DNA of 5,247 nt from Xenococcaceae cyanobacterium MO_167.B52. Its GTDB lineage: Bacteria; Cyanobacteriota; Cyanobacteriia; Cyanobacteriales; Xenococcaceae. The stretch lies in contig JASJDB010000440.1 of the NCBI GenBank assembly GCA_030065315.1, positions 1 through 5,247 on the forward strand, read 5' to 3'. This document shows positions 1 to 5,247 of this stretch, one piece after another. Position 1 is the first letter of the stretch, and each line of letters opens with the position of its first letter. The notes below the pieces were generated by a model. The model made no database searches. It was not told the DNA's origin and worked only from the letters and a program-made list of their open reading frames with translations. The position numbers were made by a program, and so were the translations under genes.

Positions 1-1347
1 AGGCTGACTAACGATCCTTTTTCTCCTCCAGAACTAGAAGTAAGAGCGAAAACAGCAGAATTTGAGTACATATCACCTTTAGTCAGTAAATTAACCACCA
101 CCAAATCTCGTCTAGTTTTTGAGGATCGCTTATCTCTACCATTAATCAGAAACTCTTTAGTATTTGATGGTCGTCCCCGTCGCCCAGGAATATTTAACAT
201 TGGTTTTGATGGAGAGGACAGGGGTGGTTTATATCTAGAAAGAACTTGGGGTCTAATTGGGCGAGAAAACATTACTTGGACGATTACTCCTCAATACTTT
301 CTTCAAAGAGCCATAAGTCCTACTACCTTTGATTTTAGTGCAGAAGATGAGGGAGGAATATTTGACTCTTCTGTCTTTGGTTTAAAAAGTGATTTTAATA
401 CTATATTTTCATCACGAACAGATTTAAGAGCTAAAATTAGCATTACTAGCTTTGATGTTAATGAATTAGAAGATAATATCCGCGCCAAACTAACAGCTAC
501 TCAGTTAATTGGTAACATCAATAGTCCTCATCAAGCTAGTTTAGAATACAATTTCCGCGAACGCTTATTTAATGGTTCTTTAGGATTTCAGACCCTATAT
601 AGTAGTATTGGCACTGTGATCACTTCTCCTGATATTAGATTAGGAAAAACAGGAATCGGTCTCAAATATCAAGGCTCAATTCAAAACATTAATTCGGAAA
701 CAGATGATCCCGAATTATTAAGCAGCGATCGCAACAATGACCGCATCAATTTAACTCGTTTTCAAGCAGCAATGTTTTTAGGTAAAAGCTTTCCGATCTG
801 GCAAGGTAAACCTCTTCCTCCGACCCAAGATCAAGGCTTACGCTATACTCCTAGACCTGTAGTGCCTTACCTCCAATTCAATACTGGTGTTTCGGGGGTT
901 ACTAGTTTTTATAGTAATGGAGATACGCAAAATTCCTTACGTGGAACTGTAGGAATTCAAGCACAATTGGGTCATTTTGGTCGTTCTTTTTTCGATTACA
1001 CAGGATTTAATGCGACTTATTCCATAGGAACAAATTTCGATGAATCTCCCTTTCTCTTTGATCGAGATGTTGATCGACAAACTCTAGCTTTAGGAATTAC
1101 CCAACAATTATATGGTCCAATTAGATTAGGGGCGCAAACTTCTTTCAATCTTGACGATGGAGATGATATTAGCACTGATTATGTGTTGCAGTATAGTCGC
1201 CGTACCTATAATGTTTCTTTACGCTATAATCCTGTCCTAAAAATTGGCTCTTTTAGTTTTCAGGTTAATGATTTTAATTGGCGTGGAGATCCTCAACCTT
1301 TTGAAAGTAATGATATTAGACCAGTTATTCAAGGAGTAGGTCGTTAA
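1..1347 (+). CDS. C-terminal ~448 codons of a large outer-membrane beta-barrel-like protein; best guess is the cyanobacterial LptD-like / DUF3769 family; 5' end lies outside the window
   Basis: Hand translation of frame 1 from nt 1 gives RLTNDPFSPPELEVRAKTAEFEYISPLVSKLTTTKSRLVFEDRLSLPLIRNSLVFDGRPRRPGIFNIGFDGEDRGGLYLERTWGLIGRENITWTITPQYFLQRAIS... with no stop until TAA 1345-1347. GTG 616 in the ORF track is therefore only the first start-like codon of an ORF that enters from the left edge. The composition is Gly/Asn/Ser/Thr/aromatic-rich, with short alternating hydrophobic-polar strands (YNVSLRYNP, IGSFSFQVNDFNW, LALGITQQLYGPIRLGAQTSFNL), as is typical of beta-barrel OMPs. The family name is recalled from cyanobacterial DUF3769/LptD-like proteins and is not search-verified. 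Confidence 0.7.
   Translation, partial: RLTNDPFSPPELEVRAKTAEFEYISPLVSKLTTTKSRLVFEDRLSLPLIRNSLVFDGRPRRPGIFNIGFDGEDRGGLYLERTWGLIGRENITWTITPQYFLQRAISPTTFDFSAEDEGGIFDSSVFGLKSDFNTIFSSRTDLRAKISITSFDVNELEDNIRAKLTATQLIGNINSPHQASLEYNFRERLFNGSLGFQTLYSSIGTVITSPDIRLGKTGIGLKYQGSIQNINSETDDPELLSSDRNNDRINLTRFQAAMFLGKSFPIWQGKPLPPTQDQGLRYTPRPVVPYLQFNTGVSGVTSFYSNGDTQNSLRGTVGIQAQLGHFGRSFFDYTGFNATYSIGTNFDESPFLFDRDVDRQTLALGITQQLYGPIRLGAQTSFNLDDGDDISTDYVLQYSRRTYNVSLRYNPVLKIGSFSFQVNDFNWRGDPQPFESNDIRPVIQGVGR
725..732. repeat. HIP1 octamer (GCGATCGC), the highly iterated palindrome of cyanobacteria; single perfect copy
   Basis: Exact GCGATCGC read at 725-732 inside the first CDS (codons ..AGC GAT CGC..). A GC-only palindromic 8-mer is unexpected by chance in about 5 kb of AT-rich DNA. 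It is used here only as a taxonomic hint. Confidence 0.6.
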
Positions 1348-1369
1348 ACCTCATTCAAGTTTTATAAAT
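1341..1369 (+). promoter_or_regulatory. Possible sigma70-type promoter for the NLR-like locus (-35 TCGTTA 1341-1346, 17-nt spacer, -10 TATAAA 1364-1369)
   Basis: This is the only -10-like hexamer with a correctly spaced partial -35 (3/6 match) that I could find in the 146-nt gap 1348-1493. AT-rich spacers produce many such matches, so specificity is low. Confidence 0.2.
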
Positions 1370-1493
1370 ATTCTGCACAAGGACGACACAGAGAAACAAA
1401 AGAAATAATACTTGTTTGATGGAAATTTTAAAAGCAATTACGCTATTATTTTGGGTGATTCTCCAAAATACAAGTTGAATTATTTGAGCTTAA

Positions 1494-1901
1494 ATGAGTA
1501 TAGAATTATTAGCTGCGGGAAAGCTTTTAGACATGGCTTTAGGTGGCATTGTCGGCAATGCTGCTACTGAAACTGCAAAACTATTGTGGCGAACAATCAA
1601 AAATCGCTTGTTGCAAAATCAGCCTGTGATTGAAGCAGAGATAGTTGAACTGGAACAAAATCCCACTCAGGAAAAGTTAAAGCCGTTAGAGCCTTTTCTT
1701 CAAGTGGAAATGCACAAAGATAAGCTTTTTGCCCAAGAGATTAGTAACTTAGCTAAAGAAATAGCTAAGGCTAATAGTGGAGATACTATTACTACAGGAG
1801 AAATTAAAGCCGAAGGTAATGCTGTTGCTGCTGCCAAGATAGATGCACCTAATTCCAGAATTGGCGGTTCGGATACTAATATTAATCTCCCAAAGAATTA
1901 A
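1494..1901 (+). CDS. 135-codon ORF encoding an unassigned alpha-helical module with a G/N-rich C-terminal tail; probably the N-terminal (effector-like) domain of the downstream STAND NTPase, not an independent gene
   Basis: ATG 1494 directly follows an in-frame TAA (1491-1493). The ORF stays open for 135 codons in AT-rich DNA and ends ..CTC CCA AAG AAT TAA (1899-1901). Its last 16 nt overlap the open upstream part of the NB-ARC frame. It begins MSIELLAAGKLLDMALGGIVGNAATETAKLLW (small-residue/Gly-rich amphipathic helix), continues with a charged helical segment, and ends NSGDTITTGEIKAEGNAVAAAKIDAPNSRIGGSDTNINLPKN. Confidence 0.6.
   Translation: MSIELLAAGKLLDMALGGIVGNAATETAKLLWRTIKNRLLQNQPVIEAEIVELEQNPTQEKLKPLEPFLQVEMHKDKLFAQEISNLAKEIAKANSGDTITTGEIKAEGNAVAAAKIDAPNSRIGGSDTNINLPKN
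1889..1895 (+). promoter_or_regulatory. C_CCA_AAG heptamer, a candidate -1 ribosomal frameshift site (or the site of a 1-nt homopolymer indel) joining the 135-codon ORF to the NB-ARC frame
   Basis: In the 0 frame the codons are CTC CCA AAG, so the heptamer fits X_XXY_YYZ in the correct phase (CCA->CCC, AAG->AAA). It lies inside the only 13-nt interval (1886-1898) where both frames are open. The 0-frame stop is two codons downstream. No clear stimulatory SD-like element or strong hairpin was found. Confidence 0.35.
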
Positions 1902-4663
1902 GCCCAGATGAAATAGTAGAAACTACTCTCAAACTAGAACGAGCTACATCTCAAGTTAATGCTTCTACTAATCTCAACACTATTCCACCAAATCTCGATA
2001 ACTGGGTAGAGAGAAAAGAAGAAATAGAGATTATCAAAGCCTGGCTGAATAATCCGCAAGTTAGTACTGTGGGGATTGCTCAAGCTAATACTTTGGGCGT
2101 TCAAGGCTTGGGTGGTGTAGGAAAATCTACTATAGCTGCTTATTTTTATCACTCTCTTGAGTTCGCAGCTAAATTTTGGGCAGATGTCAGCCTTAAACCT
2201 GATTTTACTGTCTTTGCTCAAAAGGTAATTCTGGCTTTGGGTGGCAACGTTACTCTACCTATTGATATTACGGATTTAATTAATAACTTACTTTATCTGC
2301 TTAGTCAGCGACGCTGTTTGTTGGTGGTGGATAATTTGGAAACTCTGCTGGATGGAGAGAGAAATTGGCAAAGCGAATATTATCACCAATTTTTTAGTCG
2401 TTGGCACCAGCAGGGAACAAATAGTACTATCTTGATAACTACTCAAGATAAACCTCAGTTATTCCAAGGTTTACAACATTGGTATGCTTTGGGAGGGATG
2501 AAGATTGAGGAAGGAATTACTTTATTAAACAAGGAAGGAATACAAGGAACAGAAGCAGAATTAAAAGCTTTTGTAGAATATATAGATGGGCATCCTTTGA
2601 CTATTAAATTAGTAGCAGGCTTTTTAAGAGAGGATTGTAATAGTCAGTTAAGTAAAGCCAGAGAAGAGTTTAAATTAGAAGAGTTTGAACTGGCTTATAA
2701 AGAAGCATCAGGATTTTACCGTAATCAACCAAAAGCACAAAATGCACTTCTTTCTTGGATTATTCAACAGCATTTGGATAGGTTAAGTGATGAACAAAAA
2801 CGATTTATAACTAATTTAAGTGTGTATCGGCTGCCTTTTAATCGCGAAGCAGCTAGTTATATGTGGATTGAGAAAGAAGTAAAACCGATAGTAATTCAGA
2901 AAAAGCTTCAAGAATTATGTAATCGCTCTTTATTAATTAAAACTCAAGATAATAAGTTTCAGTTTGAATCTTTAGTACAGAAATATGTTTTACAGCAAGC
3001 AAATGATTTAACATATGCCCATCAACAAGCTATTGAATATTATCAAGCAAACTTAAAACTAGAGAACCATTGGCGAAATTTAGCTGATATTACTGAATAT
3101 CTAGAGATTGTTAATCATTACCATAAATTAAAACTATATTCTCAAGCTAATAATATTCTCAAAATATGCTTAAGATTTATGAATTTGCAAGGATACCATC
3201 TGAGTATAGTTGAAAATTATGAAAAGTTAGTTCAAGGATGGCAAACTAAATTGCAATCACAAGAGTTATCTGATTATGCATGGGCATTAAATACATTGGG
3301 AATTCATACTCACTACTTAGGAAATAGTAATCAGAGTATAAAGTCTCTCAATTTGTCTCTAGAAATTTTTATGAAAATCAAAGATGGAATTGGATTAGTC
3401 TCATCTCTAAGTGGTTTGGGAGATGTTTATGACTCTTTAGGTAATTATCATCAAGCAATCAACAGATATCAAAAAGCCTTAGACATTTCACATCAAATAA
3501 TTAATGTTTATGAAGAAGGTGAATTTTTAGAATCTGTATCACTAAATGGTTTGGGGAATGCTTACTTTTCTTTAGGAGACTATGGAAAAGCCATAAATTT
3601 GTATCAAAAAGCTTTGGATATTTCACAAAAACTAAATTATTTAAATTTACAACCTGAATTTTTAAATAGTTTGGGGAATGCTTACTATTCTATAGGAGAA
3701 TACAAAAGGTCTCTAGAATTTCATAAAAAGGCTTTAACTCTATCGGAAATAAGTGGAGATCGCAATCAAAAGAGCTTATTTTTAAATAATTTGGGAAATA
3801 CCTATAATGCTATAGGAGAATACCAAAAAGCAATTAATTATCTTCAGGAATCTTTAAGTATTGTTCGAGAAACTGGTAATCGTAATGGAGAAGCCTTATC
3901 TTTGATGAATCTCGGTAATACATACACTTCTTTGGGAGAATATCAAAGAGCAATTAGTTATTTTGAACAATCTTTGGAAATTCAACAACATATAGAGGAC
4001 AGTAACGGAGAATCTAGTTCTTTAAATAATTTGGGCAATGTATACACTTCTTTGGGAGAATATCAAAAAGCAATTAATTGTCTTCAGGAGTCTTTAAATA
4101 TTGCCCGCCAAATCGGTAATCGTAAATTAGAAAGCTTATCTTTGAACAATATGGGTAATGCTTATTACCTACTAGAAGAACATCAGCAAGCAATGAACTT
4201 TTATCAAAAGTCTTTAGATATTGCAGAGCAAATAGGTCTCCTATATGAAAAAGCTAATTCATTAGCTAATATAGGAATTATTTATATTTCTCTAAAAGAG
4301 TATACAAAGGGAATCAATTATCTTCAAGAAGCTTTAAAAATTCAACAAAAAATAGGAAATTGTATCGGTGAAGCTAAATCTTTTGCTAATATTGGTACTG
4401 CATATCACTATCTAGAAAAATATAAACTAGCAATCAAATTCTACAAAAAAGCATTGACTATTTTTCAAAAAATAGGTGATCGCAGAGGAGAAGCTAATAC
4501 TTGGTTTAATTTAGGTGATACTCAAAAATACTTGCACCAAAACTCAGAAGCAAAATTAGCTTATGAAAATTCTAGAAAACTATATCAAGCAATGGGATTA
4601 GATAAAGATGTAGAGGACTGCAATAAGGCAATTCAAGATTTAGAAAATGACAATATAGATTAG
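1895..4663 (+). CDS. NLR-like STAND NTPase with an NB-ARC (AP-ATPase) nucleotide-binding module and a C-terminal array of 11 TPR units; it lacks its own canonical start (open frame from 1886; the ORF-track GTG 2069 is not credible)
   Basis: Pre-P-loop helix NLDNWVERKEEIEIIKAWL (about 1994-2050). Walker A GLGGVGKST (2105-2131). Walker B LLVVDN (2318-2335). RNBS-B-like ILITTQD (2429-2449). GLPL-like GHPLTIKLVAGFL (2588-2626). Winged-helix-like LSVYRLPFNREAA. MHD-position FES (2963-2971). These are followed by repeated LNxLGNxYxSLGEYQKAIxxxQxSLxIxxxIGxRxGEAxS units up to about 4620. Stop TAG 4661-4663. I checked every frame-2 codon from 1886 to 2068: none is ATG, GTG or TTG. Confidence 0.9.
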   Translation, partial: ELSPDEIVETTLKLERATSQVNASTNLNTIPPNLDNWVERKEEIEIIKAWLNNPQVSTVGIAQANTLGVQGLGGVGKSTIAAYFYHSLEFAAKFWADVSLKPDFTVFAQKVILALGGNVTLPIDITDLINNLLYLLSQRRCLLVVDNLETLLDGERNWQSEYYHQFFSRWHQQGTNSTILITTQDKPQLFQGLQHWYALGGMKIEEGITLLNKEGIQGTEAELKAFVEYIDGHPLTIKLVAGFLREDCNSQLSKAREEFKLEEFELAYKEASGFYRNQPKAQNALLSWIIQQHLDRLSDEQKRFITNLSVYRLPFNREAASYMWIEKEVKPIVIQKKLQELCNRSLLIKTQDNKFQFESLVQKYVLQQANDLTYAHQQAIEYYQANLKLENHWRNLADITEYLEIVNHYHKLKLYSQANNILKICLRFMNLQGYHLSIVENYEKLVQGWQTKLQSQELSDYAWALNTLGIHTHYLGNSNQSIKSLNLSLEIFMKIKDGIGLVSSLSGLGDVYDSLGNYHQAINRYQKALDISHQIINVYEEGEFLESVSLNGLGNAYFSLGDYGKAINLYQKALDISQKLNYLNLQPEFLNSLGNAYYSIGEYKRSLEFHKKALTLSEISGDRNQKSLFLNNLGNTYNAIGEYQKAINYLQESLSIVRETGNRNGEALSLMNLGNTYTSLGEYQRAISYFEQSLEIQQHIEDSNGESSSLNNLGNVYTSLGEYQKAINCLQESLNIARQIGNRKLESLSLNNMGNAYYLLEEHQQAMNFYQKSLDIAEQIGLLYEKANSLANIGIIYISLKEYTKGINYLQEALKIQQKIGNCIGEAKSFANIGTAYHYLEKYKLAIKFYKKALTIFQKIGDRRGEANTWFNLGDTQKYLHQNSEAKLAYENSRKLYQAMGLDKDVEDCNKAIQDLENDNID
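1991..2998 (+). other. NB-ARC-type nucleotide-binding domain region (NBD, helical domain and winged helix) of the STAND protein
   Basis: The order and spacing of P-loop, Walker B, RNBS-B-like, GLPL-like and MHD-position motifs match the APAF-1 / plant R-protein / bacterial AP-ATPase layout. Domain borders are approximate and set by eye. Confidence 0.8.
3286..4620 (+). repeat. Tandem array of 11 TPR-encoding units (ten of 120 bp / 40 aa and one of 135 bp), TPR_12/kinesin-light-chain-like
   Basis: Unit starts are at about 3286, 3406, 3541, 3661, 3781, 3901, 4021, 4141, 4261, 4381 and 4501. The conserved Gly of the LG(N) motif recurs every 40 residues (aa 411, 451, 496, 536, 576, 616, 656, 696, 736, 776, 816 of the track protein). 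Units 3781-3900 and 4021-4140 share 96/120 nt by hand count. Confidence 0.9.
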
Positions 4664-4664
4664 T

Positions 4665-4910
4665 TTAATCAAATGCTGTTTTGATATTTTGCTTACTTTT
4701 ATATTGTTTAATGCCTTGTTTTAATTCGGTCATCAATTCGCGATCTGAAATTATTTCAATAGTTTCAATTAAAGATTCAAACTGTTCTAAGCTAAAAGTA
4801 ATCATGACAGGTTTACCATCTTTTGTAATAATTGCAGGTTCATCGGTTAATTGATTTGATAGTTCGGCTAACTGTTGTTGTGCTTCGGCAATAGTCAAAT
4901 ACTTAGGCAT
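4665..4910 (-). CDS. Phd/YefM-family type II antitoxin-like protein (81 aa); no cognate toxin gene in the window
   Basis: MPKYLTIAEAQQQLAELSNQLTDEPAIITKDGKPVMITFSLEQFESLIETIEIISDRELMTELKQGI shows the characteristic Phd/YefM N-terminal pattern (hydrophobic-T/S-I-x-E-A-x...L..L, then a K-x-G-K-P-V strand and the L-E-x-x-E-x-L-x-E-T-L/I-E-I-L/I-S-D-x-E-L-M segment). ATG 4910-4908, stop TAA (complement of 4665-4667). Confidence 0.8.
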   Translation of the reverse strand: MPKYLTIAEAQQQLAELSNQLTDEPAIITKDGKPVMITFSLEQFESLIETIEIISDRELMTELKQGIKQYKSKQNIKTAFD

Positions 4911-4977
4911 ATTTATAAAACAATAAGTAATATTAGTTTATCATTGAAAACTAGGAGCGAAAAAGAACTTGAAATTA

Positions 4978-5247
4978 TCAACTTACTGCATATTCTGTAT
5001 ATTTCCGTAAACGCTGAGGATGAAAAGCTAAAACAATATCAGATTTAGGGATACCTGCTGGTTCTAAATCAGTTGCAATACCATCTTCTGTACCGTCTCT
5101 TTGTATCCAGATTTTGCCATCAATAATATCTAAATGAATTAAACAACCATGTACCCTGGTATCGCCTTCCCAACCTTGAGTAATTAAGATAAACCGATTT
5201 TCGTCATTACTAACAATCAATTCTGAAGCAATATCTCCATATTTATA
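4978..5247 (-). CDS. xisI: XisI-family protein (fdxN-element excision controlling factor XisI-like); N-terminus lies beyond the right window edge
   Basis: NRFILITQGWEGDTRVHGCLIHLDIIDGKIWIQRDGTEDGIATDLEPAGIPKSDIVLAFHPQRLRKYTEYAVS carries the XisI hallmark RVHGC..H.DI.DGKIWIQ.DGTE.GIA..L...GIPK..IVL.FH. Reading the same minus frame above the track TTG (5220-5218) gives YKYGDIASE with no stop up to nt 5247, so the ORF continues outside the window. Stop TGA (complement of 4978-4980). Confidence 0.85.
   Translation of the reverse strand, partial: YKYGDIASELIVSNDENRFILITQGWEGDTRVHGCLIHLDIIDGKIWIQRDGTEDGIATDLEPAGIPKSDIVLAFHPQRLRKYTEYAVS

Follow-up and report, generated by a model that had tools for sequence, protein, structure and literature searches.

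This report concerns a stretch of 5,247 nucleotides (nt) from Xenococcaceae cyanobacterium MO_167.B52 (GenBank assembly GCA_030065315.1, contig JASJDB010000440.1, positions 1 to 5,247), referred to at its full length as the window, and within it the region at nt 1494-4663. A preliminary description, made from the letters of the window, had treated this region as one gene for an NLR-like protein of three parts: an N-terminal effector-like module, a central NB-ARC NTPase of the STAND class and a C-terminal sensor array of TPR units. The three parts are real, but they do not form a single gene or open reading frame (ORF): the 3170 nt of the region are not divisible by 3 and contain two ORFs in different frames. 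That description missed the main feature: the N-terminal module has an ORF and a stop of its own, and a conserved -1 slippery heptamer links it to the sensor. We consider it probable that this is one recoded gene, whose programmed recoding would supply both a free Bell-like effector and a rarer effector-NLR fusion that signals by templating.

Two reading frames and a slippery heptamer

Features of the window lie on the plus strand unless stated otherwise. The first ORF, ORF-A (nt 1494..1901), defines frame 0, encodes 135 amino acids (aa) and ends at a TAA codon (1899-1901). The NB-ARC/TPR sensor is encoded in the -1 frame relative to ORF-A, and this frame is open from 1886 to 4663. A TAA stop at 1883..1885 closes the sensor frame on its 5' side, just ahead of the heptamer, and any shift into that frame is therefore confined to nt 1886-1898. 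These are the only 13 nt over which both frames are open, and they run, in the ORF-A frame, as ct-C CCA AAG-aat-TAA. Inside this overlap lies the heptamer C_CCA_AAG (1889..1895), a canonical X_XXY_YYZ motif in the ORF-A frame and the proposed site of -1 frameshifting, with the ORF-A stop TAA (1899..1901) one codon beyond it. A slip of -1 at the heptamer yields the junction ...NINLPK joined to ELSPDEIVE... and an ORF-A-sensor protein of 1056 aa. As far as the frames allow, this tripartite protein would exist only if ribosomes shift by -1 within nt 1886-1898.

Conservation of the heptamer in related loci

The DNA of 18 genome loci and 22 metagenome loci was compared, together with further loci for the more distant members of the family. 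A heptamer is found in frame at the end of ORF-A in 30 distinct loci, as C_CCA_AAG in 2, G_GGA_AAG in 14, A_AAA_AAG in 13 and G_GGA_AAC in 1, and each is spanned by a -1 ORF that mostly runs for 600-1336 codons or off the contig, five being shortened. The loci come from many independent assemblies and reach down to about 30% identity in ORF-A, and one is found in the complete genome of Pleurocapsa sp. FMAR1 (OY762512.1, near 2.64 Mb). The 0-frame stop is TAA or TAG, never TGA, and falls 0-1 codon past the heptamer in most of the -1 loci and up to about 7 codons past it in a few (L005, L008/L033, L020). In many loci, including the window, there is also a stop in the -1 frame just 5' of the heptamer, which leaves the heptamer as the only place where the shift is possible.

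The preliminary description regarded the break between the frames as damage to be repaired. On that account the locus would be a pseudogene or an assembly error, an intact 1056-aa gene broken by a 1-nt deletion, and some members of the family are indeed clearly decaying (L001, L011, L014 and L019). L001 and L022 (ORF-A end at 5405 and 4405, respectively) are deletion derivatives in which ORF-A ends ...HLLPY-TAA without a heptamer and the -1 ORF, of 403 codons, begins only midway through the ARC region (LLNKLAIQGTEAELKAFVKYVDGHPLTINLVAGFL). When L019 (JAAUYB010194295.1, 1-1442) is aligned with window positions 1498-2951, the ORF-A protein is 100% identical and the downstream DNA is 90.9% identical with 11 gaps; its -1 ORF stops after 374 codons, which points to a paralogue that has diverged or is decaying, or else to a fault of assembly. 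Decaying copies are as expected for a multi-copy accessory family. Against damage, however, stands the occurrence of the same break, at the same codon and with a perfect motif, in 30 distinct loci including a complete genome, with long intact ORFs downstream; moreover, GGGAAAG and CCCAAAG are not error-prone homopolymer runs. These comparative data effectively refute the pseudogene and assembly explanation, and the break is better described as a conserved property of related loci than as something in need of repair.

The different forms of the heptamer also replace one another as whole units. Coordinated swaps are found between near-identical flanks, as in TTGGGAAAG versus CCAAAAAAG and CTCCCAAAG versus GTGGGAAAG. 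L011 has ...AAT TTG GGA AAG GAT TAA where L014 has ...AAT CCA AAA AAG GAT TAA, one perfect heptamer for another, and the window has CTC CCA AAG where L021 has GTG GGA AAG. The codon just ahead of XXY always ends in X: GTG, TTG or CTG comes before GGA, CTC or TTC before CCA, and GCA, GTA, GAA, GGA, CCA or CAA before AAA. On a rough tree of ORF-A the heptamer types are interspersed. When all 64 heptamers were measured in Escherichia coli, C_CCA_AAG, G_GGA_AAG and A_AAA_AAG were the three most efficient, with up to 54% shifting in the presence of a pseudoknot (Sharma et al., PMC4066793).

The fusion could also be formed through slippage of RNA polymerase during transcription, and the A_AAA_AAG variants do hold runs of 6-7 A. 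In 16 loci, however, the motif is GGGAAAG or CCCAAAG, with three-base runs only, and these forms are interchangeable with the A-rich form at the same position. The X_XXY_YYZ register is kept throughout, which matters for the re-pairing of tRNAs but not for slippage of the polymerase. We therefore regard transcriptional slippage as highly improbable and ribosomal frameshifting as the better-supported reading.

The nucleotides just 3' of the heptamer (nnnTAAGCCCAGA; window positions 1896-1915 and 14 relatives, alignment A6) are almost invariant, with the Pro codon always CCA. This near-invariance may exceed what the coding of L-S-P-E needs, and could represent an unrecognized context signal for frameshifting or termination.

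Coding and initiation in the sensor frame

A conserved peptide begins right after the heptamer in the -1 frame. It reads [E/G]-L-S-P-[E/D]-E-I..., then ...TSTNLxTxPPNLDNWVERKEEIE..., and continues on to the P-loop. In the window the corresponding junction or linker, ELSPDEIVETTLKLERATSQVNASTNLNTIPP (1895..1990), lies in the -1 frame, is conserved at the protein level and is without a start codon. Over the 55 aligned codon columns that follow the heptamer in 24 loci, the nucleotide entropy at codon positions 1, 2 and 3 is 0.89, 0.58 and 1.23, such that variability falls in the order 3 > 1 > 2, the pattern that would be expected of coding sequence.

No conserved start codon, whether canonical or near-cognate, is seen after the heptamer in the aligned junctions. 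The first ATG, GTG or TTG of the sensor frame is found 29-156 codons past the heptamer, near the P-loop, and lies beyond the P-loop in the -1 loci L049 and L060 as well as in L016 and L018, two relatives with an in-frame TGA that are considered below. In the window it is the GTG at 2069..2071, and the sensor-frame peptide 5' of any start codon is ELSPDEIVETTLK. This GTG corresponds to sensor residue 59, between the pre-P-loop helix (residues 41-52) and strand beta-1 (65-71) of the predicted structure, and a start there would consequently cut into the nucleotide-binding domain; from the model, it is unlikely to be the real start.

The simplest alternative is that the locus represents two independent genes, with the sensor started at GTG 2069 or, close to the ORF-A stop, by re-initiation or from a non-canonical codon, and with an incidental heptamer. 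This is how gene callers annotate the loci, pairs of Bell and NLR genes with short overlaps are common, and the absence of start codons is not statistically striking locus by locus. Yet protein conservation and the coding signature begin right at the heptamer, where there is no conserved start, and in several loci the first start is past the P-loop. A start at GTG 2069 would cost the nucleotide-binding domain its predicted pre-P-loop helix, there is none of the Shine-Dalgarno signal seen in the true two-gene loci of the family, and the covariation of the heptamer is left unexplained. Two independent genes are, in our judgment, decidedly unlikely. Public gene calls for the sensors begin at scattered internal codons (MGIQGLGGVGKST..., MPNLDNWVERKE..., MGGLGSPYPKFWADVS...), and the annotations of the P0251-P0300 sensor ORFs have scattered internal GTG or TTG starts, sometimes past the P-loop, under the name 'tetratricopeptide repeat protein'. 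If the sensors are recoded, these scattered starts are a systematic mis-annotation caused by the recoding.

Readthrough, two-gene and fused relatives

Frameshifting does not appear to be the only way in which ORF-A is connected to a sensor. In five distinct loci (L016, from a Potamolinea metagenome-assembled genome, L017, L018, L044 and L046), which carry more distant ORF-A homologues of about 30-40% identity, the sensor is in the ORF-A frame behind a single TGA. These candidate readthrough sites lie at 5328-5330 in L016, 5418-5420 in L017, 5406-5408 in L018, 4409-4411 in L044 and 4418-4420 in L046. The TGA is followed by C in 4/5 and by A in 1/5, and the sequence is TGA CTK AYT in 4/5. The conserved pre-P-loop sequence comes after the TGA, and L016 and L018 have no start codon before the P-loop. 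The ORF-A stop is thus TGA in 5/5 of the in-frame loci and in 0 of the -1 loci.

Two further distinct loci, L041 and L057, have a true two-gene architecture, with a separate start for the NLR and a second copy, on the NLR, of the motif at the ORF-A C-terminus. The end of ORF-A in L041 (Calothrix membranacea FACHB-236) reads ...YGRDQINIEKIEGNPKIGGS and the NLR of this locus starts MGKRGRRGYGNQGRDQINIERVNGD..., and in L057 a Shine-Dalgarno sequence and an ATG stand ahead of ...SQDNIEIKATTYNESEMTVVGKVE..., matching ...SKDNIQVTATSHDQSTQNVVGKAN... at the end of ORF-A. Smith-Waterman comparison of the ORF-A tail with the NLR N-terminus gave z = 9.6 for L041 and z = 11.8 for L057. No such repetition of the effector tail motif at the NLR N-terminus was found by this comparison in the window (z = 1.6) or in the other recoded loci (z <= 0.1). 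The recoded ORF-A tails of L010, L016 and L052 do resemble the NLR-side motifs of the two-gene loci (z = 3.3-6.8), and the window tail aligns with other ORF-A tails within the family. Because the recoded NLR has neither the motif nor a start codon, and could obtain both only through fusion, there is a reason why recoding would be selected. We give about even chances to the proposal that -1 frameshifting, UGA readthrough and two genes with a duplicated amyloid motif are three interchangeable wirings, all of which would put the assembly motif of the effector on the sensor.

The heptamer junction links ORF-A to three kinds of sensor: NB-ARC-TPR, nSTAND1-WD40 (L052-54) and nSTAND1-FGE-sulfatase (L060/61). 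The variant sensors joined through A_AAA_AAG lie at 1148-4864 in L052 (nSTAND1-WD40) and at about 1722-4271 in L060 (nSTAND1-FGE-sulfatase). FGE-sulfatase-type STAND sensors may be targets of diversity-generating retroelement hypermutation of the kind described in PMC10907252. There are also ORF-A genes without a sensor (L003/27/29 and L034).

One natural in-frame fusion of ORF-A and NB-ARC was found, in L032 (1023-2384 of JAAUYH010132212.1; P0282), where the sequence GAG GGA AAG GGT GAA GCC CAG... retains G_GGA_AAG. This fusion ends early, where a TAG interrupts the ARC region some 100 nt short of the contig end, but its existence indicates that the fusion product would be a viable design. 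It also bears on the possibility that frameshifting is real but serves only to keep a potentially toxic all-in-one effector-NLR scarce, the 135-aa product being an inert by-product. NLRs of the all-in-one kind, with an effector domain at the N-terminus, are common (Dyrka et al.; P0295, P0297, P0302, P0314), and no stimulator of the shift has been found, suggesting a low efficiency. Down-regulation of this kind would need neither a conserved stop 0-1 codon past the site nor three interchangeable architectures, however, and homologues of ORF-A that occur alone, or beside NLRs that have their own tail motif, point to a function of the free protein itself. This explanation is unlikely, and we retain the view that recoding makes two useful products. 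The in-frame all-in-one relatives P0295 and P0297 have a different hydrophobic, Gly-rich N-domain (MLEIGALLFGTALFGSNMAGMIAGGILGN...).

The ORF-A protein

The short, helical ORF-A protein begins MSIELLAAGKLLDMALGGIVG..., with an acidic residue near its start and a hydrophobic first helix. Its gene lies directly ahead of, and collinear with, an NLR ORF that overlaps its end. An AlphaFold model built on a 28-sequence alignment predicts five helices within residues 1-94 (3-20, 26-42, 44-55, 59-75 and 77-94), with a predicted local distance difference test score (pLDDT) of 66-89. The first helix, IELLAAGKLLDMALGGIVG, is Gly-rich and forms the most hydrophobic segment, with a Kyte-Doolittle value of 1.42 for residues 3-21. 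The tail, residues 96-135 (nt 1779-1898), is predicted to be disordered (pLDDT about 33) and is rich in G, N, A, I and T. The earlier view of the module as helical, with a hydrophobic Gly-rich first helix, is thereby borne out, and no Pfam, NCBIfam or PADLOC family was assigned to it.

A search of 5.8 billion protein clusters with the first 200 residues of the fusion returned 97 homologues, all of which match the ORF-A part alone and stand by themselves as proteins of 117-166 aa, none being fused in frame. The named ones all come from Pleurocapsales (Xenococcaceae, Pleurocapsa, Waterburya and Hyella), with several per genome. The ORF-A profile was also run against 1.84 billion representatives, and this search found no fusion of about 1000 aa, returning almost only proteins of 95-165 aa. 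A few longer homologues (P0155, P0207 and P0178) have an ORF-A-like module in frame ahead of GUN4, CHAT or TPR domains. The suggestion that the module is an effector or signaling domain that goes with STAND NTPases gains from these comparisons, given that homologues lie directly upstream of three types of STAND sensor and that some relatives form effector/NLR pairs with a common terminal motif.

The NB-ARC/TPR sensor

The identification of the sensor as an NLR-like STAND protein stands. Pfam recognizes NB-ARC (PF00931) with 34.5 bits against a cut-off of 23.5 over residues 199-399 of the fused protein, and TPR with 265 bits for TPR_12 and 220 bits for TPR_1. On the basis of Pfam, motifs and the AlphaFold model, the NB-ARC NTPase with its helical and winged-helix part occupies nt 1991..2998 in the -1 frame. 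It contains the pre-P-loop helix NLDNWVERKEEIE (1991..2029), and in the AlphaFold model a helix at sensor residues 41-52 and strand beta-1 (65-71) precede the P-loop. Motif scans place Walker A, GLGGVGKST, at 2105..2131, Walker B, LLVVDN, at 2318..2335, and the GLPL-like GHPL motif, GHPLTIKLVAGFL, at 2588..2626. The Walker A, Walker B and GxP motifs follow in canonical order, and their positions are invariant or nearly so in 44 homologues.

Eleven TPR units, a short C-terminal tail and the stop codon occupy nt 3281..4663. The units are 40 aa each and extend over residues 597-1036, approximately, of the fused protein (nt ~3281-4600), presumably as a ligand-sensing array. The motifs and the 11-unit array that had been picked out by eye are all confirmed. 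The roughly 90 residues at nt 2999..3271, between the winged helix and the first clear TPR, had been left unassigned, but AlphaFold predicts here four helices (sensor residues 373-385, 396-411, 415-432 and 435-451), with pLDDT of 81-96 in 10-residue blocks, which extend the solenoid and lead it into the TPR array. The AlphaFold model of the sensor, from the -1 ORF and 44 homologues, has a pLDDT of 88 and a predicted template modeling score of 0.75, and its best match in the PDB is the STAND-TPR protein 6mfv (E 1.2e-15, 725 aligned columns). Identity to relatives is 33-42% in the TPR part versus 50-85% in NB-ARC, and the TPR arrays diverge much faster.

Genomic setting

The genes around the locus were identified as previously proposed. 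Upstream, a DUF3769 gene (1-1347; PF12600, profile positions 225-444), the envelope gene of the preliminary description, is open from nt 1 and runs off the 5' end of the window. Downstream, a Phd/YefM antitoxin gene on the minus strand (4665-4910) converges on the sensor stop with a gap of 1 nt and has no adjacent toxin ORF, and a XisI gene (4978-5247), also on the minus strand, runs off the 3' end. DUF3769 is upstream of ORF-A in none of the related loci. The Phd-XisI pair recurs downstream of L007 (79% and 92% aa identity), and XisI is found downstream of L006. The flanks of other loci hold toxin-antitoxin genes, TnpB, a resolvase and another NACHT gene, and some loci adjoin glmS or transporter genes. 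This is an accessory, diversifying family with several copies per genome, not a core syntenic gene. The idea of a defence-island setting thus holds in part, in that toxin-antitoxin or mobile flanks occur at some loci, but glmS or transporter genes adjoin others and PADLOC returned generic TPR models only. By analogy, a role of the locus in defence may be envisaged.

A scan for promoters and terminators was uninformative, with 24 sites against 18.5 expected and no terminators found, and a match to U6 in an Rfam scan (E = 0.096) is attributed to chance.

Proposed mechanism and its weighing

Two frames with a heptamer between them, the conservation and covariation of that heptamer, start-less coding in the -1 frame, and the TGA and two-gene alternatives can be read directly from the DNA. 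From these and from precedents we infer frameshifting and its efficiency, a templating or amyloid step, membrane targeting and a defence role. Most ribosomes would translate ORF-A, stop at TAA 1899-1901 and release a 135-aa, five-helix protein with a disordered, motif-bearing tail. A minority would slip by -1 on C_CCA_AAG (1889-1895) and make the 1056-aa ORF-A-NB-ARC/TPR fusion, and the fused sensor would thus carry the same effector and the same tail as the free protein. Binding of a ligand by the TPR array and oligomerization through NB-ARC would then cluster the tethered copies, and the clustered copies would nucleate the assembly and activation of the abundant free copies. In a cell that is infected or challenged by non-self, the expected outcome would be membrane damage together with death or an arrest of growth. 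The templating and membrane-attack steps are proposed by analogy with HET-S/NWD2 and Bab/Agp.

Several observations weigh against this proposal. The main weakness is the lack of a stimulatory RNA structure. RNAalifold found 0 consensus base pairs and no conserved hairpin or pseudoknot 3' of the heptamer, single-sequence folds of the 70 nt after it are non-significant (z -2.9 to +1.2), and the upstream GGNGG stretches (Gly-Gly codons) were rejected as Shine-Dalgarno-like stimulators because they vary in sequence and lie 15-24 nt away. Without a stimulator, the three heptamers gave only about 0.3% frameshifting in E. coli (PMC4066793). The efficiency of the shift may accordingly be low, which would still suit a rare nucleating sensor. 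Some loci depart from the pattern: L024 and L028 carry G_GGG_GAG, a mutated heptamer, only the A_AAG tetramer is left in L012 (Hyella), and the sensor is shortened in L007, L011, L014, L019 and L055. The depletion of start codons 5' of the P-loop is non-significant in the single loci (P = 0.01-0.57), and the proposal does not take it as primary evidence. The similarity of the window's own tail to the NLR-side motifs of the two-gene loci is likewise non-significant (z <= 1.9).

The identity of the effector is subject to similar caution. The 'Bell-like' label for ORF-A draws on its architecture and on the gene pairs of its homologues. Foldseek comparison of the ORF-A model with the PDB gave nothing better than E = 2.4 and did not recover HeLo, MLKL, CC or Bab. 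A search of PDB sequences with the ORF-A profile (A1) likewise returned none of these four, its only match being the designed protein Ika8 (6g6o; E 1.4e-5, positions 17-53), which is probably compositional. With the sensor, PADLOC gave generic TPR models only (PDLC01169 and PDLC01171) and no known system, and NCBIfam was likewise generic for TPR.

A stem of the form GCCCAGA...UCUGGGC was also considered as a stimulator; only six relatives have it, and the window lacks it. The only conserved candidate stimulatory feature is the nearby 0-frame stop.

If the proposal of three interchangeable wirings is correct, the efficiency of recoding fixes the ratio of sensor to effector in the recoded forms, and the family would mark the first description of programmed recoding in a bacterial NLR or cell-death system. 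The family would also be a natural experiment showing that the identity of the motif on sensor and effector is the selected property.

Comparison with known systems

As a STAND-TPR protein, the sensor resembles the PH0952-type protein 6mfv, in which both the NTPase and the TPR parts are covered by the match to the sensor model. The sequence identity is 17%, however, 6mfv is an archaeal protein, and the match is silent on effector or recoding. The product of the frameshift has the same effector-NOD-repeat order as all-in-one NLRs, such as fungal HeLo-NLRs, plant CC-NLR resistosomes and Avs2/bNACHT with its 'MEPIS' helix, but it is not encoded in one frame, and the free effector would be co-produced. 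The structures of HeLo, MLKL and CC gave no significant fold match to ORF-A.

As in IS3/IS911, where a -1 shift lengthens a short upstream protein into a fused one, short ORF-A of the window would be extended into the fusion, at a ratio fixed by shift efficiency. IS3/IS911 OrfA/OrfAB, dnaX tau/gamma and csoS2 have the same heptamers and a 0-frame stop close behind the site. Unlike in those cases, no hairpin, pseudoknot or well-placed Shine-Dalgarno-like element was detected at the window site, and the gene is a cellular NLR-type conflict locus and not a mobile, replication or carboxysome gene. Outside mobile elements, only a handful of bacterial genes with programmed frameshifting are known (such as dnaX, csoS2 and copA), whereas a whole cyanobacterial NLR-like family appears to depend on it here, with UGA readthrough as the alternative in relatives. 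Programmed UGA readthrough makes C-terminally extended proteins, for example the A1 protein of Q-beta. The single in-frame TGA of L016, L017, L018, L044 and L046, followed in 4/5 by C, the leakiest context, is a candidate for such readthrough from its sequence; the comparison applies to relatives of the window and not to the window.

The closest parallel is with the Bell-domain/BASS amyloid-signaling gene pairs that adjoin NLRs in multicellular bacteria (Dyrka et al. 2020, bioRxiv 10.1101/2020.01.06.895854), of which the Bab/Agp pair has been functionally demonstrated in E. coli (10.1101/2024.11.07.622273). These pairs, too, have in cyanobacteria a helical protein of about 120-140 aa, whose N-terminal helix is hydrophobic and whose C-terminal motif is unstructured, encoded immediately ahead of and collinear with an NB-ARC/TPR or other STAND gene. 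In the published description of Bell or 'Babybell', the hydrophobic helix 1 sits in a cup of four helices and an amyloid motif without structure comes after; the ORF-A model matches this, and the ORF-A homologues of Calothrix (L041) and L057 show exactly the architecture of these pairs. The likeness to the Bell domain, which was defined from ONI86675.1, is one of architecture, there being no Bell model in Pfam, NCBIfam or PADLOC. The window differs from Bell/BASS pairs in that its NLR has neither a start codon nor a motif and lies in the -1 frame behind a heptamer; the motif would reach its sensor only via the trans-frame fusion, which also brings the whole helical domain.

Surveys of Bell and NLR genes that require the motif on the NLR will have missed recoded loci, whose sensors are mis-annotated in public databases as N-terminally truncated 'tetratricopeptide repeat proteins' beside orphan 'hypothetical proteins'. 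The family offers a direct, testable link between two-gene and all-in-one NLR architectures, and suggests selection on the sensor-to-effector ratio and on the identity of the assembly motif. Frameshifting or readthrough at Bell, NLR or STAND loci is mentioned neither by Dyrka et al. nor in the Bab/Agp paper, and full-text literature searches turned up no report of it. Each component has a precedent of its own, namely the Bell/BASS-NLR pair, the all-in-one NLR and the -1 shift on these heptamers, and it is their combination in one recoded gene that appears to be new.

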